A stretch of DNA of 64,000 nucleotides, from contig JAKPTO010000014.1 in assembly GCA_029555085.1 (NCBI GenBank), positions 567 to 64,566 on the forward strand, in the 5' to 3' direction. A program made the translations under genes and the position numbers. Positions 8,538 to 62,006 of the stretch are shown here, one piece after another. This DNA comes from a bacterium. Lineage in GTDB: Bacteria > Patescibacteriota > Patescibacteriia > UBA1558 > S5-K13. Each line of letters opens with the position of its first letter. The stretch's first letter is position 1. The notes beneath the pieces are model-generated. The model worked only from the letters and a program-made list of their open reading frames with translations, was not told the origin of the DNA and ran no database searches.

Positions 8538-8567
8538 ATACTCGTAAGTTTTAATTTTAAAATAAAA

Positions 8568-11800: not shown

Positions 11801-13919
11801 TGCCTTCTTGATCCATTAAAATATTTCCGAAATGTAGATCACCGTGAGTGAATTCAGGTATAACTGAATCGGAAAAATCACGATCAAGCATAGGAGTTGA
11901 TTTTTTTACCCACTCAAGCAACGTGCTCATATTAACTCGTGTTTCGCCGTTTATTTTTATTAGCTCATGGCGAGCAAATTCTTGTAAATTTTTATCGTCA
12001 ATATTTTGTAAGAACTCAAGACCGCGTTCAATTGAAGAAAGATGATGATCGGAAAAATATCGATCTTCCACATGTTTTTCTCCTTTTGACCACAGTTCTC
12101 GTTTTAAATCCATAAAAAGATTATTAAATTCGTTTTGTGTCACCTCTCTAGTTGGTTTTTTTCCAAAGTATTGGTCATCAAGCGAACCACCTTCAATAAA
12201 GGGTGATACATAATATACTTCATCATCTTTCACATTGCTATCAATCAATTCAGGTATAATGGAAATACCAACTTTCTGCATCTGACAGGTTCGTTGGATT
12301 TGTCGCAACAAATGTTCGTATTGATTTCCATACGGCGCTCTTTTTATGACAAATTTTTTACCTTGCTCGTTTTCCATAATGCTGACTGATGCGCCCATTG
12401 ATGTGCGTTTGTCCAAATTTCCTTCCTCGACCGGTTTTAATTGCTCATAGTAAAAAGGGTAATCATATTCTTCTATATAACGTGGGATGTATACATTATC
12501 TGAATCTCGCATCTGTTTATGTCCAAGAGGAATCCATTTATATCGTTCATTGCCATTTTTATCTCGCTTCAGAGCGCGGGTTGTCAATCGATGATGTGGA
12601 AAATAATCCCAACCGGGAACGAGCTGAAAGTTCATTTTTTTTGAGGTTCCATTTACGGTAATAGGTACAGCAGAAGGATTGAAGTCCAAAATACCCCGTC
12701 CATATTTTCCACCAGCATACTTTATTTCATTAAAGGCGCGATAATAAAATGCCATTCTTTTAATGTATTCTTCTTTGGAGTGTTTAGTATTAAACATATC
12801 TGGAGAAAGTGTTCCACGATAAAACGACATCCAACTTTCAAGACTGCCCAATATATCAATGGATTCTATAAGTTCGTCCAGTTCTGTCGCTTGATTTTTT
12901 TGCAAAGCATCTTCTATTTCCAAATTTTTTCGCTCTTCTTGCTTTTCCTTCATGATTTTCATAAGAATGCTGAACAGTTCCCCGTTTTCTCGCAGAGTAT
13001 CAATTGGGCTTTGATCGTCTTTAATATCTGGTATATTGAATTTAGCAAATTCGGAACGATGAGAAGAGATGTATTTGTTTATCTTGGTGACGGCTGATTC
13101 ATATTGTTGCTGTACGGTATCTTTTTTTTCTCTTAGACGATATTGCCATTTTTTTTCGTCCTGATCTTCAACATTTATCAAACATCGTCTTACTAATTCC
13201 GCCGCGTCAATAATTTTAACCGGATTTTCTCTATTATCCATATCTTCTTTGTTGCGACCGGACTGAGCATATGCCTGCTCATTAAGTTTTTCTAAAATTT
13301 TAAGCGTTTCCTGTGTCTCGTCTTGGTATCTTCCCAATGCACGATATAAATTACCTTCATATCCAATATTAATTTGCAGGCCAGGTGAATAAATCGTTTC
13401 TGCGCCACGTGCGATTTGTTGCAAGTTGGAAAAAGCGAGATAATTTGCCATATCAGGCAAGAGTTGTCTATCAGAAATGTCCGGATTTTTAAATTTTGGA
13501 GAAAATGAAAGGCCAAAAAAAACAATAGGTTGATTTTCTCTTATGGCTTCAACCATCGTGTGTATTATATTGGCGTCGTATTCTGGACTTCTATATGTAC
13601 TGCCAGTTCTTCGTATTTCCCCTGGACGTCCAGATAAATATTCAAGCAGAGCAACAGCTGTTACCTCGGGTGTTTTTTCAAATTCTCGTTTTTCTAAATT
13701 AGTAAGACCCTCAGGAGTATATTTTTCATAATATGATCGTAGAGAATCCTTAATGCGTCTGGAAATCTGTCCAGGAAATATCGTACTTTCGGGAATAAAA
13801 GGAGGTTTGTACTCGGGAGTTGTTGGGTATTCATTAATTTTATGTGATTCGTGGTTTTGCTCGATTATTTTTTGTTCTTGTTCTTTTTGTTGGTAATGTA
13901 AAGCATTTTTTTCTAGCAT
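8832..13919 (-). CDS. giant multidomain protein: PvcA/Dit1 isonitrile-synthase-like domain + APH-like kinase + second kinase-like domain + HAD hydrolase + C-terminal GNAT
   Basis: 1695 aa. aa~120-470: QPIVFFGLSFSPKFKNPD...LLPDMANYLAF...IYSPGLQINIGYEGNLY aligns by eye with PvcA QPIHFILPAFPAKSPNP...LPDMGEQVAL...VYAPGARITICSDGRVF. aa~505-720: THGDLHFGNILMD...LIDINGSPE (APH/choline-kinase Brenner motif). aa~990-1150: LGLGKESKVF...KKVAIKI glycine loop + VAIK but catalytic loop reads VVAGQFNLRN (no HRD Asp). aa~1254-1465: VILDLNGTL...VISSGK...INKST...GNEPNEND (HAD motifs, DxN not DxD). aa~1520-1660: GGMFLTPEMQGRGVATE GNAT motif A. Higher GC than flanks. Confidence 0.6.
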   Translation of the reverse strand: MLEKNALHYQQKEQEQKIIEQNHESHKINEYPTTPEYKPPFIPESTIFPGQISRRIKDSLRSYYEKYTPEGLTNLEKREFEKTPEVTAVALLEYLSGRPGEIRRTGSTYRSPEYDANIIHTMVEAIRENQPIVFFGLSFSPKFKNPDISDRQLLPDMANYLAFSNLQQIARGAETIYSPGLQINIGYEGNLYRALGRYQDETQETLKILEKLNEQAYAQSGRNKEDMDNRENPVKIIDAAELVRRCLINVEDQDEKKWQYRLREKKDTVQQQYESAVTKINKYISSHRSEFAKFNIPDIKDDQSPIDTLRENGELFSILMKIMKEKQEERKNLEIEDALQKNQATELDELIESIDILGSLESWMSFYRGTLSPDMFNTKHSKEEYIKRMAFYYRAFNEIKYAGGKYGRGILDFNPSAVPITVNGTSKKMNFQLVPGWDYFPHHRLTTRALKRDKNGNERYKWIPLGHKQMRDSDNVYIPRYIEEYDYPFYYEQLKPVEEGNLDKRTSMGASVSIMENEQGKKFVIKRAPYGNQYEHLLRQIQRTCQMQKVGISIIPELIDSNVKDDEVYYVSPFIEGGSLDDQYFGKKPTREVTQNEFNNLFMDLKRELWSKGEKHVEDRYFSDHHLSSIERGLEFLQNIDDKNLQEFARHELIKINGETRVNMSTLLEWVKKSTPMLDRDFSDSVIPEFTHGDLHFGNILMDQEGNIQLIDINGSPERDASSIEFELSRMLLSFYRQIIRDKEYSVNVGEFGNATIEYTERGEQLLKQREMFLKSMITNNQLMEFGLPDGEQCDKNVKRFISKIKLLEALDITTVFGKRPEDEQVATYIIGTELLHTALQNYENGVIDIAVFEHMKNKITVENYCNPQVYTDIESIYRAIPFERWTEYSISHMFNQFVLSATKENGETVSVLIGLPEFADGIAGRITGMRHESGHPIITKDFQSLLEVWQRLNFPENRKDKLFKDFVAQERAIWMSIFEQKGGLIIDGKKYQFSKMLGLGKESKVFEAINEESGKKVAIKIGLQYLDEEYQYTQALQQQAGDLANRFPQCYEYDRERNMLIMELIKGHQAEDIVAEMKEPQEWVVFLKEISAVIKDIASLHERGVVAGQFNLRNVMVEQDGTYRIIDPLYEGDKQVYEAKQMMRILGVLVQKIYKTNPGMFPLQVKSANSTEVLRNLPYPEKELDAIQNKNVGIPEPIHSEFVRICKKYLSHGLENRNLQELANDFSELCKLCIAYEMQEQEEDKQFFTEKPKAVILDLNGTLEDGGFINAKTVASLQRLNERGVMVVISSGKQYDSIAEILETNGMNPANFEISADTGAAYYHNGELVQNFTIEEIDIKITRLQSLLSRENILADIHNNERRINIAFYDLNDEGIKVSRVGLEDEISQIQQLAESLGLDVITTNRGEQLDLVMRGINKSTALAFLEETHGIRDESVIKIGNEPNENDRTLLLDANGQLKTNAYAVEWVAQTTQLIERVMNEVGYGAKFKSGEMVTTFGSINDYTETTRAERVHLDRVAEKNSNVFYPYFALKERIKKQDEKTVDYKWALRDTEDEIIGLSALYELPNNPGFYNIGGMFLTPEMQGRGVATETINKIFDFAKNTIPDFKGLRVRVSEINLPSRKLVEKTGFVPTEVRENDYTLIVEGQEIKTHTIVYERTVNGSSKKIKLIDDPRLKTKEEVQVLYNEYSQKQA

Positions 13920-14045
13920 ATGATTTTGTCAATCTTGATTAATATAATTATCACAATATCCATTTTTATTCTTATTGCTTGCTATAACTTATTGAGTTAA
14001 TATTTGTGTTTATATTTTAATAAACGTTTTTTTATCATCATAGCT

Positions 14046-14097
14046 ATATTATTTTTATTTTCTCACAATTCAAACAAAAAGTAAAATAAAAAAATCG
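14046..14097 (-). promoter_or_regulatory. L module: sigma70-like promoter (TTGAAT-N16-TAATAT on minus strand) upstream of the giant gene; near-identical copy at 19359-19405
   Basis: ~50 nt atattattttt(t)attttctcacaattcaaacaaaaagtaaaataaaaa repeated ~5.3 kb apart, each 65-180 nt upstream of a minus-strand start codon (13919 and 19288). Confidence 0.5.
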
Positions 14098-14120
14098 CTC
14101 TCAAAAAAGCGATTATTATT
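14087..14120 (-). terminator. rho-independent terminator for the mod-res-rSAM transcript
   Basis: minus-strand atcgct-tttttgag-agcgat hairpin followed by a T7 run, ~90 nt downstream of the radical-SAM stop. Confidence 0.55.
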
Positions 14121-14205
14121 GATCTGTTTTGAGTGGATTTTAAAATTCAAAGTGAATTATTATTCCTCTTTGCTATTTAGTAATTCCAATGAATGGAGGT
14201 ATTTT

Positions 14206-15198
14206 TTATTTCCTTACAAAAGTATTACAAGTGGAACAAGGAATGTCCACTAGATCTTTATTATTTGAATGAATTAATTTTTTGGAGAAAAAATTTCTTG
14301 AAAGTTTATAATATTTATTATTCCAAATATCTTTCAATTTTTGATTCAATATATTTCCATAAGAAAATCTATCAAAGTCCCCTCCGCAACATGGATACAA
14401 GCTTCCATCTGGTCTTATCATGCATCCTAAATATAACCAAAAACAAGTTCGTTTATATGTTTTTGTTTTAGGGCTATCATTATTATCATCATATCCCAAA
14501 TTTTCTTGTCTATATGTAATTCTGTCTACTTTTATTTCTCTCAAAAATTCATCAATCTGATTTAACTCGTCTTTTATATGATTAAAAGTGACAACCTGAA
14601 CATCTACAATGGGATATTTCTTTTTGTTTTTTATTTTATACTCCATTACATCCCTTAAGCCCTGTTTTACAATTTCTACATCTCCACCTTGTCTATACTG
14701 AGAGTATTTCTCTTGTGAAAAACCATCCAAACATGGTTCTAATACTGTAAGACCTGAGTCAAATAATTTTTTAATATCATCTTTTTTAAATAGATTAAAG
14801 TTTGTACTAATAAGAGTGCTTATGTTATTTTTGTTTGCATAAGATATCATCTCATATATATCTTTGTTTAGAAGTGGTTCGCCCATATCATACAATGATA
14901 CACGAAGCGCGTATTTTTTTATTTTATCAATAATACTTTTAAAATCTTCTAGTGTCATTATTCTTTTTTCTTTTGTATTGGTCTGCCATGACTGACACGA
15001 TGGGCATCTTAAATTGCACGCAGAACATGGATCTATTCTATAAATAAATGGCCTCGAGATACACCTTCCTCGTCTAAATGTCATTTCAAGAAATGAAATA
15101 ATAACATTTATGGCCTTAGTAAATGTCAAAAATGGGAGTAATGAAAAAAAATGTCTTTTAATGAATAAACCTAGCTTATTATAAAATGAAAGCTTCAT
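14206..15198 (-). CDS. radical SAM protein with SPASM/twitch-like Cys-rich C-terminus
   Basis: 330 aa; CNLRCPSC radical-SAM cluster motif (within CSACNLRCPSCQ); C-terminal CFWLYLGC...YPCCGGD...CSTC Cys cluster pattern; N-terminal hydrophobic segment; same strand as and downstream of mod-res. Confidence 0.6.
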   Translation of the reverse strand: MKLSFYNKLGLFIKRHFFSLLPFLTFTKAINVIISFLEMTFRRGRCISRPFIYRIDPCSACNLRCPSCQSWQTNTKEKRIMTLEDFKSIIDKIKKYALRVSLYDMGEPLLNKDIYEMISYANKNNISTLISTNFNLFKKDDIKKLFDSGLTVLEPCLDGFSQEKYSQYRQGGDVEIVKQGLRDVMEYKIKNKKKYPIVDVQVVTFNHIKDELNQIDEFLREIKVDRITYRQENLGYDDNNDSPKTKTYKRTCFWLYLGCMIRPDGSLYPCCGGDFDRFSYGNILNQKLKDIWNNKYYKLSRNFFSKKLIHSNNKDLVDIPCSTCNTFVRK

Positions 15199-15371
15199 AG
15201 AATTACTTGTTAATAAAATTTATTAAAATATTTAATGCTAATTAATATATTAACTTAAAAAAATTTTCAAGTAAAGATGAATCAATAATCTTTTGTATAT
15301 TTGGGACATCCTTGATCCCCAATGATCTGCGTAATTTATAAAAAATCGTTTTTAAAATAATAATTATTTAG

Positions 15372-15533
15372 CTAGTTATTTATGGTGGTGTGCGTTCGAA
15401 AAAATTTGAACTGATTTTGCTCAAAATTTATATGGCTGACGAAAATCCCCTCCCAATCCTCTTCCTTTTTGTCCACCTGCCTAGGCTTCGCTCCTAAAAC
15501 TCTTGGGCAAGATATTTTTTTGGTGTAATTCAT
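15372..15533 (-). CDS. possible small ORF (53 aa) in GC-rich res-rSAM intergenic region
   Basis: manual translation MNYTKKISCPRVLGAKPRQVDKKEEDWEGIFVSHINFEQNQFKFFRTHTTINN; no clear SD; below the ORF-track length cut-off; could equally be a gene remnant. Confidence 0.2.
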   Translation of the reverse strand: MNYTKKISCPRVLGAKPRQVDKKEEDWEGIFVSHINFEQNQFKFFRTHTTINN

Positions 15534-15569
15534 AAAGTTAAATATATCTCTTCATGCACTCGCTAAATT

Positions 15570-17708
15570 TCACATAGTTACCTTCTTACAAAAGTTCACA
15601 AACTCGTCTTTTGATAATAATTTTTCGTTACCTTCCACATACTGAAAAATACGCCATTTATCATCTCGCAAAATCGGTAAATAAAATATCTGATTGGTTA
15701 GTTTAGAAGCTTGTTTATATGCTTTTTTCAATTCTTCCAACTTCGTTTTATAGATATTATTATCAAAACCCCCGACCATATTTGCAGAAATATTTACACT
15801 TTTTACTTCAAAAATATGTATTCTATTAAAGCTGTCTTTCATCACAAAGTCTGGATATGAAGAATGCGGTGCGCCGAGATAATACTCAAACTTTATCGGC
15901 GAGTTTGCCACATAATTTTTACCCCACAGATACACTTGTTTCGTATCTAAAAACTCTGGTTCTGTTTCTCCAAATAAATCAGTTGCTCCGGCTTTTGGAT
16001 TCTTCCTCCCAACTGTTACTCTTTTACCAACTCGTCCATCGCCAACCGCTACATCATCTTTTGCAAGGTCCTTTAAGATACTCGTCCACGCACGCTCCGC
16101 TTCACTATCAAATGCAAACTTCTCTTTGCCGTCATTGCGTTTCCATACCCAGTCGCCAATATCTACATAATTGCCGTTGTCGGTGTAATGTGAAGTCAGA
16201 GCAAAGGAAACTTCTACTTCTTTTCCGTTTTCGTCTTTTACTACTTCCATGCTTTTCTCATAATCATTCACATATTGACTGCTTTCATTTGCTACGGTAT
16301 CAATATTTTCCACAAACTCACGCCATTTTGTATAAGTCGTCGCATAATTTTCGCCCATTTCTCGCACGCTGTTTTCGGCTTTCACAAAATTTCTCCATAA
16401 AGAAAAAATAGAACTCGGAGTAGATACGATTGATTGTTTTTTCAAGAATGTCGTTAGATTAAAACTGGCCTTTTTGGTCAAGGATTTTAACCGTGTTGTC
16501 TTAATTTTGATCTCATTAGTAATAATTTCGCTATCTTGCCACAATTTCACGCCAAAACTTTTTCGCAAGTCTCCGGGAACAATGCCCCAAATCCATGCGG
16601 TCATAGCTAGTCTTTGTGCGTCTTCTGATAATGATTCAAAATCAAGTAGTCGCGGGTTCCGTCTTACTCGCCCCATCACTTGCTCATCCAATTGCTTACT
16701 CTTACTATCCCGTATTTGAAAAAGCATACAGGCGCGTGGAATATCCCACCCCTCAGTAATCACCATTTTGAAAATGATAATATCAATCGTACTTGAATTT
16801 TCTTTTGCATAATCTTTCCACTTGCTCACAGGCAACTTTTTGGCCTTAAAAGTGTCGTTGGTGTCGCATTGCTTCTCGTTATTAACAATTAGCATCCACT
16901 TTAGATCCGTGTGTTCAGCTTTTTCCAGTTCCTTTTTAATCTCGGCAATTTCAGCATCCGCTTTGTCTTTGTTGCTAATCTGGATAATTAGACATGGGTT
17001 TACGCCCAGCATGTTGCGGTAATCTTTTTTTATTTCTTCAAACTTCGTAATCGCATCAGTCACTTTGGCATCAGGGTCGTCAACCAACTCAATATCTTTG
17101 ATCAGTTTCGCATTTACCGCGTCATCGTTTTTAATCTCAACATCAGGGTGTTGTCCACGCGAAAGTTTTGGCGTGGCAGAGAAGTTGTATATTTTGGTAA
17201 AGAATTTTTCTGATAAACTATCCAGATTGTTGGTGGCAATATGGCACTCGTCTTTTATTAAATAGACTTTTTTATCCAAGCCACCTATCAATTCCGTCCC
17301 AGTTACTGTGCGTAAAAATCCTTCCATTGCTCCTTGCATCAGTCGTCCGCCTTTTTTATATAAATCGCGAGGTAAAAGATAAACATTATAGTCGGTTGGC
17401 ACAAACAATCTCTCTTCACCTGCAATTTCGCTACTAATTAAATATGGCTTCAATTCCGGAAAATTTCCTTTTACTGAGTATTGTTGAAACTTCTCATAAT
17501 TTTGTGTGGCGAGATCGCCTTTTGAAAGTGTAGAAACAAGAAAAATCACATTTTTATCAGCTGATAAAATGCGGTTCATCATATCCGCCATCATATAGGT
17601 TTTACCACTTCCTGTTGGCGCTTTGAAAGTTATCTCATCTTGTGCAGAGGTGAGTTCAACAAGAGAAGTGACGGCGTTTTGCTGTAGGTCTATTGCTTCT
17701 TGTTTCAT
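15570..17708 (-). CDS. res: Type III restriction enzyme Res subunit (SF2 helicase + C-terminal PD-(D/E)xK nuclease)
   Basis: 712 aa; Walker A APTGSGKT, DEAH-like LIKDECH, C-terminal PDFVMKD...IFEVKS nuclease motif; start 2 nt after mod stop. Confidence 0.75.
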   Translation of the reverse strand: MKQEAIDLQQNAVTSLVELTSAQDEITFKAPTGSGKTYMMADMMNRILSADKNVIFLVSTLSKGDLATQNYEKFQQYSVKGNFPELKPYLISSEIAGEERLFVPTDYNVYLLPRDLYKKGGRLMQGAMEGFLRTVTGTELIGGLDKKVYLIKDECHIATNNLDSLSEKFFTKIYNFSATPKLSRGQHPDVEIKNDDAVNAKLIKDIELVDDPDAKVTDAITKFEEIKKDYRNMLGVNPCLIIQISNKDKADAEIAEIKKELEKAEHTDLKWMLIVNNEKQCDTNDTFKAKKLPVSKWKDYAKENSSTIDIIIFKMVITEGWDIPRACMLFQIRDSKSKQLDEQVMGRVRRNPRLLDFESLSEDAQRLAMTAWIWGIVPGDLRKSFGVKLWQDSEIITNEIKIKTTRLKSLTKKASFNLTTFLKKQSIVSTPSSIFSLWRNFVKAENSVREMGENYATTYTKWREFVENIDTVANESSQYVNDYEKSMEVVKDENGKEVEVSFALTSHYTDNGNYVDIGDWVWKRNDGKEKFAFDSEAERAWTSILKDLAKDDVAVGDGRVGKRVTVGRKNPKAGATDLFGETEPEFLDTKQVYLWGKNYVANSPIKFEYYLGAPHSSYPDFVMKDSFNRIHIFEVKSVNISANMVGGFDNNIYKTKLEELKKAYKQASKLTNQIFYLPILRDDKWRIFQYVEGNEKLLSKDEFVNFCKKVTM

Positions 17709-17710
17709 AA

Positions 17711-19288
17711 TTATTCGTCTTCAAGAGTTTTTTGTGTATTTTCAAAATTTTCACACACCCATTTTATTTTTTCTTTTACTCCAAGTTTTTCCTGCCCGTA
17801 CAAAGTTTCATCTATTTTTTCAAATGGTTCGTCAGAGTACGGTGCTACAGTGGCAATATCATAAACATCAAGATTGCCGTCGAGTGGTTTATTTTTCTCG
17901 TTCCACTTAAAATCTTTACTTCCGTCATAACATTCACCAGTCATTACTCGTTTGAGACGTTTGCTTGTTACATCATTCACAATTCCGTTTGGTGTGGTGT
18001 CGGTTATCTCATTGGCAGTGGCAAGAATAAACTGTCTTTTTCCACCATCTTCCTTATTAAGTTCCAGTACTGCTTGCCCAGTTGTCCCTGAACCAGCAAA
18101 GAAGTCGAGGATAATTAAATTTCTGTTAACTAAACCAATTAAATATTTGATTAGTGATATAGGTTTTGGGTTATCAAATATATTATTTTCTATTATGCTT
18201 ATCAATTCCTTCCCACCATCTTCATTTGTCCCAACCCCACATTCTTCTTTATTTATTATATTTGACGGTTTTTTCTTTCTTTCTCCCTCTCTTTCATACC
18301 TTATAGAGAATTCATTACTTTTTATATAAAATACTGTGCCATTTTTAACCTCTTTGTCTACTGTCTCTTGAGTCCATTTAAAATTACCTCTCAACTCAAA
18401 GTCCTTATCTGCTTTACCGTTTGCTATATTTATATTAGTTAGAAGTTGAGTTTTCTTTTTATAACCATCTTTAAATTCCCCATTAATCTTAAAAATAACA
18501 GAATCCTTATTAAATTTTATTGTTCGTATTGGGTTTCCACTGTTTAACAATGGCATATCTCCACCTACTATTATACCCGCACTCAAACCCTCGTCTCTTT
18601 TTCCATTTTGATAACATAAGACATATTCATATTTTTTTCTTATATCTTTACCCAAGCTGGGGGGGGTAGCGGTTTTATTCCACATAAAATTTGCTAAGAA
18701 ATTACTCTCCTCGAATACCTCATCAAAAAGCCCCTTTACATACGCTTGATTTTTATCATCAATACTACAAAAGATTACCCCATTATCACTTAAAAGCTGT
18801 CTAGCAAGAACTAGGCGCGGATAAAGCATAGAAAGCAGGTTGTCTCTCGTGATGGCATTGTTGTAATTTGTCTGTGCAAACTCTCCCATAGAGTCCTTGC
18901 CATATGGCGGATCAATATAGATCACATCAATCTTTCCGCGGTATTCAATCAGCAAATTGAGAAGTGCATCATAGTTATCTCCGATGATGAGTTTGTGTGT
19001 TTGTGCGTTCTTGTCTTGTACAAAACTCAATTCATTGTTTTTCTTAAAATACTTTATCGTGTCGGTCATTTTCTCCAGTCGTTTGTCAAAGTGAAAGCCT
19101 GTGCGTTTATATGTTGTTCCAAGCTCGGCGATCATAATCGCTTCATTGATAGTATCTGTATTTGTAATGAGTTTTTTCAAGAGATCAGCATTCGTTTTTT
19201 CTATAATCTTGTCGGCAATACGTTTATCTATCTCGGTTATGAGATCGTCTTTAACTTTTCTTATATTGTTTGTTGTAGTATCTTTCAT
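17711..19288 (-). CDS. mod: Type III R-M Mod DNA methyltransferase (beta-class, N6A/N4C)
   Basis: 525 aa; motif IV IDPPYGKD precedes motif I ILDFFAGSGTTG (beta-class order as in Type III Mod); contains a C8/G8 tract. Confidence 0.8.
   Translation of the reverse strand: MKDTTTNNIRKVKDDLITEIDKRIADKIIEKTNADLLKKLITNTDTINEAIMIAELGTTYKRTGFHFDKRLEKMTDTIKYFKKNNELSFVQDKNAQTHKLIIGDNYDALLNLLIEYRGKIDVIYIDPPYGKDSMGEFAQTNYNNAITRDNLLSMLYPRLVLARQLLSDNGVIFCSIDDKNQAYVKGLFDEVFEESNFLANFMWNKTATPPSLGKDIRKKYEYVLCYQNGKRDEGLSAGIIVGGDMPLLNSGNPIRTIKFNKDSVIFKINGEFKDGYKKKTQLLTNINIANGKADKDFELRGNFKWTQETVDKEVKNGTVFYIKSNEFSIRYEREGERKKKPSNIINKEECGVGTNEDGGKELISIIENNIFDNPKPISLIKYLIGLVNRNLIILDFFAGSGTTGQAVLELNKEDGGKRQFILATANEITDTTPNGIVNDVTSKRLKRVMTGECYDGSKDFKWNEKNKPLDGNLDVYDIATVAPYSDEPFEKIDETLYGQEKLGVKEKIKWVCENFENTQKTLEDE
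18659..18666. repeat. G8 (coding-strand C8) homopolymer inside mod
   Basis: ctgg+gggggg read directly; encodes ...ATPPS...; highly unusual in a ~27% GC background. Confidence 0.8.
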
Positions 19289-19453: not shown

Positions 19454-19545
<92 letters not shown>

Positions 19546-19583
19546 AATATCGTATATATGAGTATATTTTTTCGTTAATTTAT

Positions 19584-19658
19584 TGGCTGGGGAGGTAGGG
19601 TTCGAACCTACGCATGTCGGCTTCAAAGGCCGATGCCTTACCACTTGGCTACTCCCCA
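19584..19658 (-). tRNA. tRNA-Gln (anticodon UUG), CCA encoded
   Basis: revcomp TGGGGAGTAGCCAAGTGGTAAGGCATCGGCCTTTGAAGCCGAC...GGTTCGAACCCTACCTCCCCAGCCA; closely resembles canonical bacterial tRNA-Gln. Confidence 0.8.
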
Positions 19659-45169: not shown

Positions 45170-45598
45170 TTAATTTTTATCTAATTTATTTTTTTTAAAC
45201 ACTTTTTGTTTATACATAATAAAATTCCAAATCATTCCAAGTATTGTTCCTAAAATTTTTCCAAGTATATCTGAAATACCAAAATAATGAACACTTACAA
45301 CAAGACATGCTCCAGATATCAATAAAGAGATTATTGTTACGGAAACAAAACTAAGATATTTTTTTATTATGTTTTGATTATCAGATTGAAATGTGAGATT
45401 TTTATTCATTATAAAACTAAACATATTAGCTACAAAGAAAGAAGATATGTGCGCTATTATGTAATATTTTGTAAAAAATTCACAATTTCTTGTTAGAGAT
45501 ATGTATATAAAAAAATCAATAACCGTATTGATGAGGCCAATAATTCCAAATTTTATTATTTGAATAATTAAATTTTTATATTTATTTATTAAATTCAT
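45170..45598 (-). CDS. GtrA-family membrane protein
   Basis: 142 aa, 4 TM; FGIIGLINTVIDFFIY. Confidence 0.65.
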   Translation of the reverse strand: MNLINKYKNLIIQIIKFGIIGLINTVIDFFIYISLTRNCEFFTKYYIIAHISSFFVANMFSFIMNKNLTFQSDNQNIIKKYLSFVSVTIISLLISGACLVVSVHYFGISDILGKILGTILGMIWNFIMYKQKVFKKNKLDKN

Positions 45599-47762
45599 CT
45601 TTTTTTAATAAACCTATATAAGATCCATAGTTTTGATTTTTATTATATGCGAAAAATTCATTTATTAATTTTCCACTTTTTTCGAAAATTTTTATATGTG
45701 CTCCACCACCAATACCAGGGGAAGTTATTATTTCATTTTGATAATCAGAGTCAACATCATAAATTTTTACATATACTTCTTTTTTATACGATGATTGGTA
45801 TGCCATAAAACTATTTATTAGTTCTCTTTTTGAATTATATATTAAAATATATGAAGAACTACCACTTTTAGGAGCAACAGCTATTTGCGCCTCATTTAAA
45901 AAATTATCTGTTTTACAATCAATATTTAATCCACCTCTAAAATTTTTATTACCAGCAAAAAAATTATCTTTTAAGCCGCCATTTTTATCAAAAATTTTAA
46001 TATGTGGTCCACCTCCAATCCCAGGAGCTGTTATTATTTCCATTTGTTTATCATTGTCATAGTCGCATACAGACACAGATAGTCCAAATTTATAATCTTT
46101 GTTATATGCATAGAAACTATTCAATAAAGTTCCTTGAAAATCATATATTTCTAATTTTGGTTCATTTGAATGTCCGATAATTATTTTCTCTCTTTTTGTA
46201 TTATATAAATCCCCTATGGATATTGAAGGTATTGATTTTGATTTTATTGTAAATTTTGCGAGCAATTTAAATTCATTGGAATATGTGTATATTACAGCAT
46301 TTGGCGCGCGAAATGACATTATAATTATTTCTTGTTTTCCATCTCCATCTACATCCCCAGATTCAACTCTGTGATAATTATAATTATTAGATGGAAGAAT
46401 TTTTTCAAGACTTGTTTTCGTTTTTTGATTAAATATTTTTATATTTAATTTATTAGAATAGTTTTGAGTAGTTATTATGGAGATTTCTTTATTAGCCTTA
46501 TGTCTCCGAGCTTCTATTATTGCCTGATTTACATCTAGCAAACCAAAACCAATTTGTTTTCTGTGACTAAAATTTTTAAAGGAAATATTTTTTGCACTGT
46601 CTTTTAATATTTGAATTATTTCCTCATTGGAAAATGTTCTGTCTATTGATTTTATAAGTGCAACTGCTCCAGTTACCATTGGCGCTGCGTATGATGTTCC
46701 ATATTGTGAATTGCCATATTTTTTTGAAAAAGCACTAAGCTGTGGTTGATAAACCTTGGTGCTGTAAATATTTTCTCCTGGTGCTAATATATCTATGCAA
46801 GATTCACCATAATTTGAAAAAGTAGATAATTGATTATCTTTATCCACAGAACCAACTCCAATTACAGTATTTTTCCCTAAGTCATAACATATGGGATATT
46901 TAGGATTTTTTGTTAAATCAGTTCCTGCGCCCATTTCATTTCCAGATGAAGCAACTACTATAACGCCTGCGTTGTAAGCTCTTTCTATAGAATTTCTTAG
47001 TATTTCATCATCATTATCACCTACAAAACTAAGATTAATTATATTTGCGCCGTTTTTTATAGCATAATCAATAGCGCGAGCTACATCATAGGTATTGCCA
47101 TTTCCTTGACTATCTAGTGCGCGAAGCGACATCATTTTTATTTTCCAAGCTACTCCAGTAATGCCCTCTTTATTACCACCAACAGCTCCGATTATTCCAG
47201 CAACTGCAGTTCCGTGATTTACCGCATGTTTATTGTACCCAACACTTAATTTAACACTATTATCAGATTTATTATTAACAAAATCCCATCCATAATAATC
47301 ATCAATATAGCCATTTTGATCATTATCAATTCCGTCATCTGGAATTTCTTTTCCGTTTTTCCAAATATTATCTTTTAAATCTGGGTGATTATAGTCAATT
47401 CCAGTATCAATTACAGCAACAATAACATCGTTTGCATCGGTTACCCAAGTCCAGGCTTGTTCAGCGTTTATTTGCTTTAAATAATCTTGAGAAATATATT
47501 CAGGATCATTTGGGTATGCAGATATATGATAATTATAATTTTGAGAAATTGATTTAATTTTTGGGTTAGATAATATTCTTTGTTTTACATTATCAAAATT
47601 ATCTAGAGAGATGTTTATTTTTCTAATGTCATTGTTTGTGGATTGTATTATAAATTCCCCAGTATTTTTATTCTGTATATCAAAAAAATAGGTAGAAAAT
47701 AAACACACCACTATTACTAAAAACATACCGATTTTGTTTTTGAAAATCAGTTTCATATACAA
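45582..47762 (-). CDS. secreted subtilisin-like serine protease (S8) with C-terminal FG-GAP/VCBS-like repeats
   Basis: 726 aa; catalytic triad contexts AVIDTGID, HGTAVAGIIG, GTSYAAPMVTGAVAL; C-terminal repeated DxDGDG/FG-GAP-like segments. Confidence 0.75.
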   Translation of the reverse strand: MYMKLIFKNKIGMFLVIVVCLFSTYFFDIQNKNTGEFIIQSTNNDIRKINISLDNFDNVKQRILSNPKIKSISQNYNYHISAYPNDPEYISQDYLKQINAEQAWTWVTDANDVIVAVIDTGIDYNHPDLKDNIWKNGKEIPDDGIDNDQNGYIDDYYGWDFVNNKSDNSVKLSVGYNKHAVNHGTAVAGIIGAVGGNKEGITGVAWKIKMMSLRALDSQGNGNTYDVARAIDYAIKNGANIINLSFVGDNDDEILRNSIERAYNAGVIVVASSGNEMGAGTDLTKNPKYPICYDLGKNTVIGVGSVDKDNQLSTFSNYGESCIDILAPGENIYSTKVYQPQLSAFSKKYGNSQYGTSYAAPMVTGAVALIKSIDRTFSNEEIIQILKDSAKNISFKNFSHRKQIGFGLLDVNQAIIEARRHKANKEISIITTQNYSNKLNIKIFNQKTKTSLEKILPSNNYNYHRVESGDVDGDGKQEIIIMSFRAPNAVIYTYSNEFKLLAKFTIKSKSIPSISIGDLYNTKREKIIIGHSNEPKLEIYDFQGTLLNSFYAYNKDYKFGLSVSVCDYDNDKQMEIITAPGIGGGPHIKIFDKNGGLKDNFFAGNKNFRGGLNIDCKTDNFLNEAQIAVAPKSGSSSYILIYNSKRELINSFMAYQSSYKKEVYVKIYDVDSDYQNEIITSPGIGGGAHIKIFEKSGKLINEFFAYNKNQNYGSYIGLLKKDEFNK

Positions 47763-53682: not shown

Positions 53683-55905
53683 TTATTCTAAAAATCCTTC
53701 TTGAATTTTATCAAGGTTTGCGTTTGTTATCCCAAGGGAAAGTTTGGTGAATAAATCCATTAAATTATCCCATGTTACTTCGTGTTTCATACCTTTTAAA
53801 TCTATATACCATATTCTTCCTTTATCTTCTACTTGTAAAAGTAATTTGCCTTTTAATCTATTTCCTAGGGTTGTATATTTATTCTCTGATATTTGATTTA
53901 AATCTTTATTGGATATTCCTAAGGATAGTTTTTCAAATAAAGGAAGCGCATTAGCAAATGTTACTTCATATCTTTTTGAATCACCTGGATTTACATACCA
54001 TATTCTTCCTTTGTCTTCTACTTGTAATAAAAGTTTTCCCATTAATTTTGTTGCTAGTTTTTTGTCATAAACTTGATTAACTTGATTAACTGGTTTTGTA
54101 ACGGAAATATCTTCATGGTCATAATTTACAATGTTTGGCGTATCTGTTAGTGAAAAGCTTTTTACCATTTCATTAAATTCTTTTTTAGCATTGTTTATTT
54201 TTGTAGTATCATTTTCTTGTAGAGTAAGAGATATATTAATATATGCATTTTGTATTTTTATAAAATAATTTATACTATGGATAATTTTTTTCTTTTCGCT
54301 TGGTTTGTATATTTCTGATTCGAGCATTATAGCATCTTTTATTTCATTGTTTATACTATAATGAGCATTTGAATTTATTATTTTAAATTCAATATCAAGA
54401 TATGTACCCATTTGGTTAGATGTTTGTATCATTTGTTTTATGTTGTCTAAATATTCTTCATTGCTTAGATTTTCTGAATTATCGTTAGTCTTTTCTATTT
54501 TAATGCCAGCGAAAAAATTATCATTTGTTTTATTTAAAATAACAATTGGCGATGTTTTGGAATTTAATATTGCAATTGGTAAGTTATCTTTTGTTTTTAT
54601 GCTAAAAACGGGATCTTGATTTACATATTCGTATATTTCATTAAAAACTATATCAGAATCTCTAGTAATAAGAGAATTTATCATATTATCAATATTTGTT
54701 TTATCTTTATCATTTTTTCCATAATCATAAGATATTTGAATTAATATATTTTGTACTGGAAAAAGATATATGTTTTCCATTTCATTGTGGCTAGCTCCAT
54801 ATCTAGAGATTAATAATTTTTTACCCCATCTGCCATTGATATTAACATCTTCTATTTTATTAAAATTGACAGCTGTTGGAATAGTTATTGTGCTTTTATA
54901 TATTGATATAGCATGATCTACACTTATAAAATAAGGCATTTTTGACATTTCAAGCTCCAAATAACCAGAATCTTCATCATTTTCATTATATACTGATATT
55001 ATGCTTTCTTGTTCAAATGAAAATACCCAACCTTCGGGTTTTGTTATTATTAAATATGGGTTATTTTCGTTTAAGAAAAACGGAGCTGTTTCTAATATAT
55101 TCTGTCTTTTTATAAAATTCTTAGTTTTATTTAGCAAATGATTATCCTGTGGTGGAAGATTTTTGTTTTGATTTATCCACGAATTCAAAGAATTAATATT
55201 GGTAATATAACCCAAACTTCCAACTAAATCAGAATGGGTGCGACTTGTAATTCCTATAATATTGCCATTTTCATCTATTGCTGCTCCACCAGAATTGCCA
55301 AATGAAATTATTGCATCTGTTTTTATCCAATTTTTTCCATATTTTGATTCCTTACCACTTATGATGCCACTTGTTATTGTTATTGTATCCCCACCTATTG
55401 CTGGATATCCTAGGGCTATTACTTTATCATTTATATTTGTTGTATCAGTTGAATTAAGATTTAAATATGGAAAATTTTTTATTATTGGGCTTAAATTATT
55501 TATGATTTCTATTTTTAAAATAGCGACATCTAAATCTTTATTTCTTGCGATAAGTTTTGCGCTATATTTACAATCAGGTTTATTGTTAATTGTTTGAGGT
55601 ATGCACACTTTATAAGATGTTGGTAATTCACTTTCATCAAATTCATCTTCTTCTGTTACTACATGATAGTTTGTAAGTACAAGACCATTTTTATCTATAA
55701 TAATTCCAGAACCAGATCCACTTGTTGTTAAATAATTATCAGTATCCTCATAAAATGTATAAATTTTTACTATTGCTTTAAATGCGTCTTCTCTGGGTAA
55801 TTCGCTTGGGTCTACAATATATTCCTCTGCTTTTGTGAATTGAAAATTTGCCAATGCTAAAAATATAAACATTGGTAGGATAATCAAAATTTTTATTTTT
55901 TTCAT
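53683..55905 (-). CDS. secreted trypsin-like serine protease (S1C/HtrA-like) with C-terminal tandem-repeat domain
   Basis: 740 aa; signal/TM; TNYHVV (His), DLDVAILKI (Asp), GNSGGAAID (Ser); C-terminal two ~55-aa repeats sharing GKLLLQVEDKGRIWY. Confidence 0.7.
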   Translation of the reverse strand: MKKIKILIILPMFIFLALANFQFTKAEEYIVDPSELPREDAFKAIVKIYTFYEDTDNYLTTSGSGSGIIIDKNGLVLTNYHVVTEEDEFDESELPTSYKVCIPQTINNKPDCKYSAKLIARNKDLDVAILKIEIINNLSPIIKNFPYLNLNSTDTTNINDKVIALGYPAIGGDTITITSGIISGKESKYGKNWIKTDAIISFGNSGGAAIDENGNIIGITSRTHSDLVGSLGYITNINSLNSWINQNKNLPPQDNHLLNKTKNFIKRQNILETAPFFLNENNPYLIITKPEGWVFSFEQESIISVYNENDEDSGYLELEMSKMPYFISVDHAISIYKSTITIPTAVNFNKIEDVNINGRWGKKLLISRYGASHNEMENIYLFPVQNILIQISYDYGKNDKDKTNIDNMINSLITRDSDIVFNEIYEYVNQDPVFSIKTKDNLPIAILNSKTSPIVILNKTNDNFFAGIKIEKTNDNSENLSNEEYLDNIKQMIQTSNQMGTYLDIEFKIINSNAHYSINNEIKDAIMLESEIYKPSEKKKIIHSINYFIKIQNAYINISLTLQENDTTKINNAKKEFNEMVKSFSLTDTPNIVNYDHEDISVTKPVNQVNQVYDKKLATKLMGKLLLQVEDKGRIWYVNPGDSKRYEVTFANALPLFEKLSLGISNKDLNQISENKYTTLGNRLKGKLLLQVEDKGRIWYIDLKGMKHEVTWDNLMDLFTKLSLGITNANLDKIQEGFLE

Positions 55906-58353: not shown

Positions 58354-58619
58354 AAGTTTTATGCTATACCAATAATTCCCATAATTCTAATTAGTGATTC
58401 TAATTTTGTTTCGGTAATTAAATAAAATAATTTTGGATAAATTAAATCACTTTTTATTAATTATTTATATTATTTTTATAATTCGCATGTACATATAAGA
58501 ATTGCACTATTAATATTTTATATTTTATAGAATAAAAAGTAAAGAAAAATCCCTTAAAAAAGTAACGGAAAAAGAAGAACCCCCTTGAAGCTATTGCTAT
58601 AAGAGGGTTGTGGTAAGGA

Positions 58620-58949
58620 TTATTTCAGTAGTATTATTTTACGAGTGGGAGTGTATTTCCCACACGTAAGTTTGAACAGGTAGATTCCATTGGAAACCCT
58701 GTTTTTGTTTTTGTCAGTCCAATTCCATATTATTTTGTGATTTCCAGGGCTCATTTTTCCATTTACAAGAGTTACAATGTGTTGACCTTTTATGTTGTAA
58801 ACAGAAATATTAACAAATGCAGTTTCTTGTAAAGAAAAAGAGAGTTTTGTTTGGGAATTGGAATTGGAACTGGAAATAGTCAGAATGCCTTGACCATACG
58901 AAAAAGTAATGATCAAGACAAGTGTTGTAACTATTACTAGCTTTTTCAT
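58620..58949 (-). CDS. signal peptide + T9SS (Por) type C-terminal sorting domain only
   Basis: 109 aa; ...VYNIKGQHIVTLVNGKMSPGNHKIIWNWTDKNKNRVSNGIYLFKLTCGKYTPTRKIILLK; GC-rich relative to genome. Confidence 0.55.
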   Translation of the reverse strand: MKKLVIVTTLVLIITFSYGQGILTISSSNSNSQTKLSFSLQETAFVNISVYNIKGQHIVTLVNGKMSPGNHKIIWNWTDKNKNRVSNGIYLFKLTCGKYTPTRKIILLK

Positions 58950-59113
58950 ATGATCCTCCTTTGCTATAATTAATTATTCCATTTAATTACACTTTTGTCA
59001 ATAATTTAAATAAAAAAAGAGCTCCCTTTTGGCTTATGCCTCGAGGGAGCTTTGGAGGAATCGCTTAGTCCGCCCTTTAGGTGTGACTAGATTAGGCGGA
59101 CTTCAGCAGGAAA

Positions 59114-60994
59114 TTATTTTACTAGCATCACTTTTTTGATGGCAGAGTATTTTCCACTCACCATTTTGAAAAAGTAAATGCCAGTGGCAACGGAATGACC
59201 ATTTTGGTCTATTCCATTCCAGCTTATATTGTGTTCGCCGGAAGATTTGGTTTCGTTAATTAGGGTTTTAATCAACTGTCCCTTGATGTTGTAAACACCA
59301 ATCTCCACATTGCCAGATTTTGGCAGGTTATAAGAGACTGATGTTTGAGTTTTGAAGGGGTTTGGATATGCGTTGCCTAGAGTTGGAGTGATGGCGGGAG
59401 TTATTGAGTCATCATTGTCAACATATTGAGCCAAGCTTCTCGCCTGAACATCAATATGACTCAGACCTTCTGGGATTTGGATTTGTATCCCTTCGCCGGA
59501 ACGATTCATCTGAATTTTTTCAGGTTCAATGGAATGCCTTCGATCACTTGACCAACAGAGGTTTTCTGCTCCGTTCATGAAAATTACAGTGTTCCAGTCT
59601 TCACCATTTGGTAATTTGCCAAAAACACCAATACAATTTCCGCTGGTGTTAACTGTAATTGTATTTCCGGTTTGATTGAATGTCACTTCAGTGATGTTTG
59701 GCCAGGTTCCGTCATACGGTTGACCAATGCCAAGTCCTTGGACAATTGGTTCGTCTGGATGGTTCAAGTATACATTTCCCAGCCATTGATCGAACATGTT
59801 GGGGTAAAAGAAAAGTACTGATGATCGAGATATATTTGGAGCGGAATTATTGTTAAAATTCGTCCCATATAGATTTATATTACCAACATTATATTGTTGG
59901 CACATATCAAGATCATCTTGACTAAAAATACCATCACCACTCACATCTAATTTTATGGCTTGGTATGGGTGATATACACGCTCATATTGAGCACATTTTG
60001 TTATCATTCCAAATAGAGGATTAAAATTCCCTGTTTCAATTGAGGTGTATTCACTTTGGATCTGGTCGGGATCCAGATAAGTGAGGTTAGTTTTAATCAG
60101 TGTTTCGTACAGAAAAACGTCATTTACTCCAATTACATTAGGAGATGTCCATGACATTTGAAATGTACTGTATTCTGGATGCCACGCGTAAGCTAGACCA
60201 GGTAAATAATCAGTAACAAAAAAGTTACCATCTCCTGGATTGATTAGTCCGGGCGCGCCTCCAAAAATAGTTCTGGAATCCATAGTAACAATAGAGTTTG
60301 GAAGTGAATTCGGTAGCGAATTCACACTTAAATAACTCCAGAAACTCTGTCCGGGATAAACCCAGAAGTGATCTTGGTAGTAATTTTGATGAATTTCTAC
60401 TGGATTTACTAATGGAGCCATGGATAGTCTGTGCATTGGTTCCCACTTATTGATAATGTGAAATATATTATCCTGATACGGGCCAATCATATTCGCAAAG
60501 TGGGTTTCTCCAGAATTTTGTCCAGTTATCTGGAAATTTTCAGAACTACACAATCCAAGAGAGAATTTTGCCCCACCATTGGAATTGTCCCAAATATTAC
60601 CCATCACCACAAATGTCTTACTGGTATTTGGTTGAATAATGGTTCCAATATTCTGAAATTTTAAATCCATTATTGAATTATTGCTAGGATTCCATTGTCC
60701 ATCGTTGGTAACCATATAAAACTGAATGTTTGGTTCTGGAGCCGGGAGATTTAGATTCCAGCAAGAAAAATTCACGCATTGCAGAATAATCGGTTCTGTT
60801 TCACCGTTTTCTACGGTGAAGGTTATAAATACCTGATCCTCTGCATTGGTCAAAACAGTGATTGTGTCTTGAGGTGCGCCATTAACCATATTGGTTAAGT
60901 ACACATTCACTGTCGAATTCAGGGAAACCACGACCATCATCATAATGACAGCCAAAATAATTAGATTTTTTTTCATTGTTACCTCCAGTAACAT
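59114..60994 (-). CDS. secreted hypothetical protein with T9SS (Por) type C-terminal sorting domain
   Basis: 626 aa; signal peptide; C-terminus ...YPNPFKTQTSVSYNLPKSGNVEIGVYNIKGQLIKTL...GIYFFKMVSGKYSAIKKVMLVK; ~40% GC. Confidence 0.6.
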   Translation of the reverse strand: MLLEVTMKKNLIILAVIMMMVVVSLNSTVNVYLTNMVNGAPQDTITVLTNAEDQVFITFTVENGETEPIILQCVNFSCWNLNLPAPEPNIQFYMVTNDGQWNPSNNSIMDLKFQNIGTIIQPNTSKTFVVMGNIWDNSNGGAKFSLGLCSSENFQITGQNSGETHFANMIGPYQDNIFHIINKWEPMHRLSMAPLVNPVEIHQNYYQDHFWVYPGQSFWSYLSVNSLPNSLPNSIVTMDSRTIFGGAPGLINPGDGNFFVTDYLPGLAYAWHPEYSTFQMSWTSPNVIGVNDVFLYETLIKTNLTYLDPDQIQSEYTSIETGNFNPLFGMITKCAQYERVYHPYQAIKLDVSGDGIFSQDDLDMCQQYNVGNINLYGTNFNNNSAPNISRSSVLFFYPNMFDQWLGNVYLNHPDEPIVQGLGIGQPYDGTWPNITEVTFNQTGNTITVNTSGNCIGVFGKLPNGEDWNTVIFMNGAENLCWSSDRRHSIEPEKIQMNRSGEGIQIQIPEGLSHIDVQARSLAQYVDNDDSITPAITPTLGNAYPNPFKTQTSVSYNLPKSGNVEIGVYNIKGQLIKTLINETKSSGEHNISWNGIDQNGHSVATGIYFFKMVSGKYSAIKKVMLVK

Positions 60995-61088
60995 TTTTTG
61001 GTTTTATTTGTAAAAGAACAATAGCAAATAATAGCACAATTTATAAAAAAGTCAATACCACGATTAGGTTTATTTTAAGCCAAAATAC

Positions 61089-62006
61089 TTATTTATTTCT
61101 TCTAAAAATAATCAAAAAAATAATTATAGAAAGTATCATAATTCCCATTAGCACGCCAAAAATCCAAGGTTTATCAGCATATGGAAGATGAACATTCATT
61201 CCATAAAAACTTGAAATCATAGTTGGAAGAGTTAAAACAACGGTTATTGTGGTTAGAATTTTCATTGTTTTGTTTAATTTATTCGTAGTAATAACTTCGT
61301 ATGATTTTCTAATATTAACTAAGTTTGATAGACCACTTTTTGCTCGCTCTATTAATTGTTCGTTTAAAAGTTTTATATCATCAATCAATTCTTTGTCATC
61401 TTCATAAAGTTCAATTATTTTTCCCTGTCTCATTGTCTCTAAAATATGACGAAATGGAATTAATGCATTTAAGAATTCATTTAACAAAATTTCAAAGTTT
61501 AAAAAACTATAAACATCTTTATCTTTTAATTTTTCAATATTAAAACTAAAATAATTTATTTTTTTATGAATTGTTGTTAAGAGATTATTATACAAATATT
61601 CAGTTTGATTAATTATTTCTAAAAGTAATTTTGTTCTTTGCGTTGTGAAACATTCGTTTTTCTTTAGTAAATTTTTTATAAAAAGTGGTTCTTCTTGAGA
61701 AACAGAAAGTAAAAAATCCTGACCCATAACTAAAAGTATTGGATTTGTAAATATTTGATCTGTTGATTTTTTTTGTTTTGGAAATCTTGCAAAAATATAA
61801 ATTAACCCCTTTTTTATTTCCATACGAGGAGCTTCATATGGATCCAAAGCATCATTTAAAAGTCCATAATCTAAAGAAAATTTTGATGATAAGAGTTTTA
61901 ATTCCTCTTCTTGCAAATCAAATGCTATAATCGCACTACCAACTCTAAAATCTTTCAATTTTCTAAGTTTCGAACTTTTTAACATTTTTTGGTAGTAATT
62001 TATCAT
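61089..62006 (-). CDS. corA: CorA-family magnesium/cobalt transporter
   Basis: 305 aa; C-terminal two TM with YGMNV (GMN) motif. Confidence 0.8.
   Translation of the reverse strand: MINYYQKMLKSSKLRKLKDFRVGSAIIAFDLQEEELKLLSSKFSLDYGLLNDALDPYEAPRMEIKKGLIYIFARFPKQKKSTDQIFTNPILLVMGQDFLLSVSQEEPLFIKNLLKKNECFTTQRTKLLLEIINQTEYLYNNLLTTIHKKINYFSFNIEKLKDKDVYSFLNFEILLNEFLNALIPFRHILETMRQGKIIELYEDDKELIDDIKLLNEQLIERAKSGLSNLVNIRKSYEVITTNKLNKTMKILTTITVVLTLPTMISSFYGMNVHLPYADKPWIFGVLMGIMILSIIIFLIIFRRNK

Follow-up and report, generated by a model that had tools for sequence, protein, structure and literature searches.

How does a pair of genes ending in sorting tails of the system for type IX secretion (T9SS) come to lie in the genome of a bacterium of the candidate phyla radiation (CPR; Patescibacteria), when such tails are held to co-occur strictly with the T9SS machinery in the Fibrobacteres-Chlorobi-Bacteroidetes (FCB) group (PMC11285876)? 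The question is raised by 2 minus-strand genes within a stretch of 64,000 nucleotides (positions 567 to 64,566 of contig JAKPTO010000014.1, assembly GCA_029555085.1), which is called the window below and whose numbering is used for all positions unless another locus is named. An earlier reading of the letters alone (hereafter the sequence-only reading) had explained the pair by recent lateral acquisition from an FCB-group donor. The explanation favored here, with a rough probability of 0.55, is that 58,550-61,050 is a two-gene cassette, resident in and exchanged within a Komeilibacteria-type clade, and that it encodes exported proteins whose C-terminal domain (CTD) is used without a T9SS of the producer's own. 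The parts of the locus on which the argument turns are listed below; residues of the big protein are numbered as in its 626-aa open reading frame (ORF), and labels such as L017 denote versions of the locus.

58550..61050, replaceable cassette: sharp limits of DNA identity against the nearest relative, L017
59114..60976, minus strand, big cassette gene: 620 aa from the ATG at 60976, with signal peptide, variable module of ~510 aa, and CTD
59375..60913, minus strand, variable module covering the N-terminal and middle parts of the big protein: residues 28-540; Pfam, PDB, and PHROG give no match, and a D-x-S-G-D-G loop is dockerin-like
59117..59368, minus strand, CTD of the big protein: residues 543-626, NPF...YNIKGQ...GIYFFKM...KKVMLVK
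58620..58949, minus strand, small cassette gene: 109 aa, with signal peptide, S/N-rich linker, and CTD only
61089..62006, minus strand, CorA, the upstream flank: Pfam CorA at 138.9 bits, 93% aa identity to L017
56575..58353, minus strand, alanyl-tRNA synthetase (AlaRS), the downstream flank: 592 aa, Pfam tRNA-synt_2c and tRNA_SAD, 78-86% aa identity in the clade

The C-terminal domains

According to TIGR04183, both proteins end in the sorting domain: the big one scores 40.0 bits over residues 543-623 and the small one 32.1 bits over residues 32-106, with a cut-off of 23. This check upholds the Por-secretion pattern that the sequence-only reading had seen in both ORFs, apart from the PNPF motif, which the small protein does not have. 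PF18962 (Por_Secre_tail) gives 37.1 and 23.0 bits, respectively, the latter under the gathering score of 27, and within Pfam it is outscored on both proteins by FlgD_ig (PF13860). In both cases the CTD ends 0-3 residues before the stop codon, and a clade-tuned hidden Markov model of the CTD, run over all 6 frames of the 64 kb, reports no CTD ORF beyond these 2. The 109-aa ORF had also been read as signal peptide plus CTD, which is borne out, with a short S/N-rich linker in between. The CTDs of the 2 proteins are 47% identical, and since the small CTD is nearer to that of its neighbor than to any outside CTD, the small gene probably arose by local duplication.

The CTD-only AlphaFold model (39 sequences) has a mean predicted local distance difference test (pLDDT) score of 88.1 and forms a six-strand beta-sandwich. 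Its top Foldseek matches in the PDB are FlgD Ig domains (E 1e-4), followed by the CTDs of PorZ, PorU, and T9SS substrates at E 2e-3 to 2e-2. The predicted fold suits a T9SS CTD without setting it apart from the Ig domain of the FlgD hook cap (PF13860; PDB 3osv, 3c12), which shares the beta-sandwich topology and provides the best Pfam score as well as the best Foldseek matches. As for FlgD itself, that identity was rejected: NCBIfam FlgD models reach 12-32 bits (cut-offs 230-383) and cover the Ig part only. No FlgD N-terminal domain was found in the 2 proteins, and no flagellar genes were found nearby.

Residues N33, G36, K85, and K90 (the Asn and Gly of YN-x-K/R-G and 2 C-terminal Lys) are invariant among 8 clade CTDs, and G32 is invariant across 39. 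The invariant clade residues fall within both of the motifs, L-beta3-beta4 (the beta3-beta4 loop) and C-t. (the C-terminus), whose importance for T9SS function in Porphyromonas gingivalis was shown by mutagenesis (PMC11285876). The L017 allele (6729-8603, P0035) extends 13 residues beyond the usual ...KKVILMK end of the CTD (NLSAEIRSTYSQL); C-terminal extensions of the CTD are tolerated by P. gingivalis (PMC11285876).

Host genome and contig integrity

Contigs that bear the exact 626-aa product number at least 23, from 40 collection blocks (JGI, ENA, Logan, NCBI); several of these contigs are ~72 kb long, and the neighboring genes are always the same. Because the junctions were independently assembled at least 23 times, a chimeric contig, about which the sequence-only reading had been concerned, is excluded. 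The gene order is IF-2B family, form-III-like RuBisCO, AMP-phosphorylase-like, MnmA, CorA, cassette, and AlaRS, and beyond AlaRS follow IF1, S13, S11, S4, RpoA, L17, L13, and S9.

Full-length relatives are labeled "Patescibacteria group bacterium" in NCBI and, in the GTDB species set, "Candidatus Komeilibacteria bacterium S5_K13" (lineage Patescibacteria group, Parcubacteria group, Ca. Komeiliibacteriota). S5_K13, a single amplified genome whose source is a winery wastewater(-treatment) lagoon, has a completeness of 82.7%, a contamination of 0%, and a GC content of 31.5%; 16S and GTDB markers were used for its classification (PMC8241940). The ortholog at L006/L008 lies in this single-cell genome of Cand. 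Komeilibacteria. Given the labels of the relatives and an uncontaminated single-cell genome typed in this way, the assignment of the host genome to the CPR/Patescibacteria (Komeilibacteria-like) is sound, in agreement with the CPR-like character first read from the letters.

Several further observations concern the same clade. A conserved pair, DUF8128 plus a TrwB/TraG-like coupling ATPase, adjoins the RuBisCO and AMP-phosphorylase genes in all clade members (L009 782-4012, L003, L018). The record of L007, which is the same as L003 (CAYLQO010000004.1), carries the title "uncultured Gammaproteobacteria bacterium", probably wrongly: by gene content and with 80-87% identity in AlaRS, L007 falls in the Komeilibacteria-like clade. 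AlaRS itself has only 592-593 aa in every clade member, comprising the catalytic and tRNA_SAD domains; a typical bacterial AlaRS has ~870 aa.

A slot with conserved flanks and replaceable content

A family member occupies the slot MnmA-(CorA)-big-small-AlaRS in the window and in 8 further versions of the locus (L001, L003, L005/L006, L017, L018, L023/L024, L025, and L027). Altogether at least 10 distinct assembled versions of the locus hold the pair or its counterpart; they come from at least 7 NCBI assemblies and from metagenome contigs, including the 345-kb contig that carries L018 and one contig of 45 kb. The small CTD gene lies 3' of the big gene in the window, L003, L005, L017, and L018. 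At L001 (2424-3441) and L023 (4317-4700) a gene with the PDDEXK_3 nuclease fold replaces it, together with a 142-aa ORF in the case of L001, and no remnant of the small CTD ORF is detectable at either locus.

Across lineages the flanking proteins are 78-93% identical and the big protein 33-69%, in disagreement with the relationships of the flanks. Thus, identity between the window and L017, which are closest by flanks (CorA 93%, MnmA 91%, AlaRS 86%), is no more than 44% for the big gene and 53% for the small one. L005 and L018 are 93% identical in AlaRS and 89% in the small gene, and 39% in the big gene. The window and L001, which has no small gene, share 69% in the big gene and 82% in AlaRS. 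Single alleles are mosaic as well: that of L017 is 49-63% identical to the window allele in the N-terminal third and 19-23% in the middle, whereas against L018 the pattern is reversed (23-38% and 56-62%, respectively). The window CTD is 75% identical to the CTD of L017 and 57-62% identical to those of its own allele group.

In the sliding comparison of window and L017 DNA, identity is 90-95% in MnmA and CorA, 80-87% in AlaRS, and 37-74% in the cassette. The upstream breakpoint lies at ~61,017-61,050, with 37-65% identity inside the big gene. Between the CTD-coding end of the big gene and the beginning of the small one, identity recovers in part to 69-74%, and at the downstream breakpoint (~58,550) it again exceeds 80%.

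No terminal repeats, integrase, or transposase occur at the cassette edges, where a repeat search returned AT-rich chance matches only. Cargo of a mobile element or phage was considered and rejected, given the lack of edge repeats, of any PHROGs match for the big protein (the small ORF has a marginal one, E 0.004), and of relatives among 2.9 million viral contigs. The simplest mechanism of exchange would be homologous recombination with the flanks, and possibly also the conserved CTD-coding segment, as anchors.

Hypervariable surface loci set between housekeeping genes include capsule and O-antigen loci and adhesin replacement islands. The slot resembles them in its sharp breakpoints at the flanks, the conflict between allele and species trees, mosaic alleles, and atypical composition. 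It differs in holding 2 genes only and in showing no signatures of mobile elements or site-specific recombination.

The cargo family and its outside relatives

The variable module has no match in Pfam, PDB, or PHROG, and a PDB profile search with it returns nothing at E <= 1. A profile of 5 orthologs, searched against 1.84 billion representative proteins, yields 56 relatives at E <= 1e-3. The PNPF motif of the tail is present in 49 of these 56 representatives, and a few others have a CTD-like end without PNPF. In a Pfam scan of remote members, Por_Secre_tail is found in 24/24 and Dockerin_1 in 6/24. The window protein itself gives no match to Dockerin_1 (PF00404) at E <= 0.1 and has 1 D-x-S-G-D-G-like loop only. 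A further profile search with the 24 remote members adds little: among the matches listed, only P0040 and P0045 are true members, and the rest match in the CTD alone. The full-length AlphaFold model (5 sequences) has a pLDDT of 38.7 and is confident only in the CTD and a beta domain before it, the module staying under 50.

Named members are PJC01978.1 (Ca. Komeilibacteria; "Dockerin domain-containing protein" in UniRef) and MBP9802563.1 and MDD3284484.1 (both Patescibacteria group). To judge from these searches, the cargo module is an undescribed family, and its members of known provenance are all Patescibacteria. Outside the family only CTD matches are found, at 30-50% identity, in proteins of Cloacimonetes, Zixibacteria, KSB1, Latescibacterota, Ignavibacteriota, Bacteroidota, and Poribacteria; for the first 3 of these, CTD identity is 40-50%. 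Literature searches found no work linking T9SS CTDs or FlgD-Ig domains to CPR/Patescibacteria.

Selection and composition

Both the proteins and their CTDs are maintained by purifying selection. The ratio of nonsynonymous to synonymous substitution rates (dN/dS) is 0.07-0.15 for the big gene (4 window-type alleles) and ~0.25 for the small gene. Within the CTD, the proportion of nonsynonymous differences (pN) is 0.27-0.29, in comparison with 0.65-0.76 for synonymous ones (pS). Every allele at the slot has the CTD, and truncated alleles were not seen there.

The big gene has a GC content of 38.3% with 0.352 at third codon positions (GC3), and the small gene 32.7% and 0.318. Against the baseline of the 47 other window ORFs (mean 0.174, SD 0.030), GC3 corresponds to z = +5.9 and +4.8, respectively. 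The ~40% GC patch of the sequence-only reading is therefore compositionally foreign as described, but the figure suits the big gene rather than the small one. The rise in GC3 covers G- and C-ending codons in every degeneracy class, and codon positions 1 and 2 of the cassette genes resemble those of flanking genes. Translational selection is unlikely to be its cause, in view of the joint rise of G- and C-ending codons and of a GC3 that is lowest in ribosomal protein genes.

The same bias recurs in relatives. In 8 of 9 lineages the cassette exceeds its flanks in GC3 by a factor of 2-3, the exception being L027 with 0.215. Window-type alleles show saturation at synonymous sites, where their divergence equals or exceeds that of AlaRS; by a simple mutation-bias argument, the composition of a gene transferred once, long ago, should already have ameliorated. 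The high GC3 might stem from repeated import out of GC-richer relatives, from gene conversion with a GC bias at a hot spot of recombination, or from selection. GC-richer relatives are conceivable as donors because Komeilibacteria genome names span ~36-53% GC. L026 is an example: in this 46%-GC genome the family member is compositionally native and adjoins the genes for valyl-, tyrosyl-, and arginyl-tRNA synthetases (ValRS, TyrRS, ArgRS).

Starts, export signals, and transcription units

The longest ORF of the big gene spans 59114-60994 (626 aa, minus strand). The gene is placed at 59114-60976, since GGAGG lies 5 nt upstream of the ATG at 60976, all relatives begin at the equivalent Met (MKK/MRK), and the NCBI call has 620 aa. 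The ATG of the small gene is preceded by AGGAGG, also 5 nt upstream. The N-termini of the 2 proteins (MKKNLIILAVIMMMVVVSL... and MKKLVIVTTLVLIITFSYG..., respectively) have a Lys-rich n-region and a hydrophobic core, and were judged by eye to be Sec-type signal peptides; among orthologs a VNA|YLTNM site is conserved. Both products are inferred to be exported by Sec, given the n-h-c shape of their N-termini and the conservation of VNA|Y.

The following signals accompany the 2 genes.

61028..61055, minus strand, promoter-like site of the big gene: TTGACT-16-TATTAT, TG before the -10 box, 10/12, consensus match only
59020..59108, minus strand, two GC-rich stem-loops 3' of the big gene: a T-run comes after the second (59020-59051), a likely intrinsic terminator
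58973..59001, minus strand, promoter-like site of the small gene: TTGACA-17-AATAAT, TG before the -10 box, 11/12, the best of the region, consensus match only
58578..58609, minus strand, stem-loop and U-rich tract 3' of the small gene: likely intrinsic terminator

The promoter-like site of the big gene is one of the 2 best minus-strand sites in the region. According to RNA folding, the stem-loops after the big gene reach -39.2 kcal/mol (z -3.91), with 0/200 shuffles equally stable, and the one after the small gene -15.9 kcal/mol (z -4.32). The GC-rich hairpins first noticed at 59000-59100 are thus confirmed, with another 3' of the small gene. As each gene has its own promoter-like site, Shine-Dalgarno sequence, and terminator hairpin, the 2 appear to be separate transcription units.

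Interpretation of the cassette

The course of events that we favor would run as follows. The CTD, and perhaps the whole gene, would originally have come from a lineage of the FCB group, before the sampled clade diversified. The slot would then have acted like a surface-antigen locus, with whole alleles and domain blocks swapped by recombination between lineages and each allele remaining under purifying selection during this turnover. Sec would export each product across a single membrane. The big protein would consist of a variable modular ectodomain (an Ig-like N-terminal part, a core with the dockerin-like calcium loop, and the pre-CTD beta domain) joined to a C-terminal beta-sandwich like that of T9SS type A cargo. 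The small protein, presumably a product of local duplication, would be the beta-sandwich alone. The CTD is probably not an outer-membrane export signal in the producer, as producers are expected to have neither outer membrane nor T9SS; most likely it would be retained as an extracellular beta-sandwich for attachment to or recognition at the cell surface, and the variable ectodomain would contact hosts, phages, or substrates.

CPR/Patescibacteria are not known to have a classical outer membrane. Among ~32 window ORFs scanned (including every ORF of at least 490 aa) and in the flanks of related loci, no T9SS-like Pfam families were found. T9SS genes are reported to be absent outside the FCB phyla (PMC11285876).

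Compared with T9SS type A cargo (TIGR04183/PF18962), the cassette proteins have in common the Sec signal peptide, the C-terminal beta-sandwich of ~80 aa, scores over the TIGR04183 cut-off, the conserved Gly of the loop between beta3 and beta4, and a last strand rich in Lys. They differ in the producer, a member of the Patescibacteria, for which T9SS genes are reported absent and an outer membrane is not expected, in the cargo family, whose only named or syntenic members are Patescibacteria, and in their recombining hypervariable slot. Membership in functional T9SS cargo cannot be granted to them, the co-occurrence with the machinery not being expected. The small protein has a counterpart in PorA of P. 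gingivalis, which is also small and almost CTD only (PMC7712824); the 109-aa ORF likewise consists of signal peptide and CTD without cargo. This likeness is one of architecture and shared domain; PorA acts in the T9SS and in PorXY-SigP signaling, neither of which is evident here.

Four points weigh against the favored explanation. The absence of T9SS and PorU-like genes is taken from the literature, the 64 kb, and the flanks of related loci, not from whole genomes. Strict conservation of the T9SS motifs, the C-terminal position, and a stand-alone CTD gene are somewhat unexpected for a generic Ig-like module. With a pLDDT of 38.7 for the model that includes the variable module, the surface or adhesin role is drawn from context. 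Finally, GC3 is high in spite of saturated synonymous sites, a combination that simple vertical descent since an old acquisition leaves unexplained.

Alternatively, the clade might possess a T9SS-independent pathway of its own that recognizes and cleaves the CTD and anchors the cargo, with a C25 (PorU-like) peptidase as candidate sortase. This is unlikely, although the CTD is always at the extreme C-terminus and L021, a 428-kb contig of low GC, offers a suggestive arrangement. At 7906-15665 of that contig, a GC-richer island (GC3 ~0.4 vs 0.2-0.26) holds 2 family members and a third CTD protein of sortilin/BNR type, which flank a Peptidase_C25 gene. An IS110 transposase lies alongside, and an integrase gene is found ~7 kb away at the edge of the locus. 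The flippase of L021 shares 39-40% identity with its counterparts in the window and L018, which hints at, but does not prove, a related organism. However, NCBI labels L021 merely "bacterium"; its C25 protein, which has the C25 propeptide and is without a CTD, does not match the PorU model NF033707; and no C25 gene occurs in the window or near any syntenic slot.

Quite unlikely, too, is that the CTD is directed at a host, in the sense that PorV, PorU, and PorZ of a T9SS-bearing FCB host recognize the exported proteins from outside. The CTD may then tether a symbiont adhesin to the host, perhaps covalently, or jam host secretion, and the stand-alone CTD may serve as a competitor or decoy. The residues constant in clade CTDs do sit in the 2 motifs of T9SS recognition, and the CTD is under purifying selection in a lineage expected to be without the machinery. 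The cassette is hypervariable, as expected of a host-interface protein, and the nearest outside CTDs are from FCB taxa. One source habitat is the winery wastewater-treatment lagoon, and FCB taxa are common in habitats of this type. On the other hand, these Komeilibacteria are not known from any host, PorU is not known to process exogenous CTD proteins, the conserved Gly and Lys may be merely structural, and CTDs reportedly are poorly interchangeable even among Bacteroidota species (PMC11285876).

The sequence-only reading had also allowed that the CTD is baggage, a functionless remnant of laterally acquired cargo. This would suit a producer expected to have no T9SS, and the CTD does evolve a little more quickly than the remainder of the protein (52-59% vs 60-72% identity). 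Purifying selection on proteins and CTDs nevertheless makes it very improbable: the tail is kept in 49 of the 56 family representatives and in every slot allele, none of them truncated, pN is far under pS within it, and a separate gene for signal peptide plus CTD persists in 5 lineages at the dN/dS given above.

As for the recent import from an FCB donor with which the sequence-only reading had explained the pair, very little speaks for it beyond a GC3 that lies 5-6 SD over the other window genes and a CTD type otherwise found in FCB phyla. The nearest whole-protein relatives of the 626-aa protein, which were to reveal its donor, are syntenic Patescibacteria genes with 60-69% identity, no FCB protein matches the cargo, the slot is shared across the clade, and the high GC3 extends to most of its lineages. 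Given the GC range of Komeilibacteria and the compositionally native member in L026, a donor pool within the phylum or GC-biased gene conversion explains the composition equally well. The recent event is the replacement of alleles within the clade.

That the contig is a chimeric or misbinned piece of an FCB genome is hardly credible, having only the compositional jump in its favor, against junctions reassembled independently and a slot that is syntenic across NCBI assemblies, metagenome contigs (the 45-kb one included), and a single-cell genome.

Other features of the window

A type III restriction-modification pair (15570-19288, minus strand) encodes a ResIII helicase (712 aa) and an N6_N4 methylase (525 aa), has GC3 of 0.31-0.37, and adjoins tRNA-Ser and tRNA-Gln (19455-19658). 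The raised GC3 and the adjoining tRNA genes mark it as another laterally acquired island. At 8832-13919 (minus strand) lies the gene of a 1695-aa protein with DIT1_PvcA, ABC1/protein kinase, HAD hydrolase, and GNAT domains, which has 36% GC in comparison with ~27% for the genome; a multidomain protein of this size is unusual for a reduced genome. The highest GC3 of the window (0.415) belongs to a 206-aa ORF at 3045-3665 (plus strand), which has no Pfam match and is located on the strand opposite to nearly all genes.

Two large proteases of the window that appear to be secreted are without the CTD: a subtilase S8 with FG-GAP repeats (45582-47762, minus strand) and a trypsin-like protein of 740 aa (53683-55905, minus strand). 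Relatives of the latter share a conserved C-terminal tail, ...WxNLMDLFxxLSLGI..., possibly a sorting or anchoring signal of another kind.

Significance

For annotation, these results advise caution: a TIGR04183 match alone implies neither T9SS cargo nor FCB ancestry of a contig, and high gene GC alone does not date a transfer. A tail-bearing family is firmly resident in Patescibacteria, as a single-cell genome confirms. Either the domain leads a second, T9SS-independent life in bacteria presumed to have a single membrane, or it takes part in an interaction with T9SS-bearing hosts. If the latter were true, the variability of the ectodomain and the turnover of alleles would represent an arms race, and the CTD type of a CPR lineage would predict the phylum of its host. 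Host recognition and attachment in the CPR are largely unexplained, and a conserved, hypervariable, exported protein pair is a concrete candidate for them.

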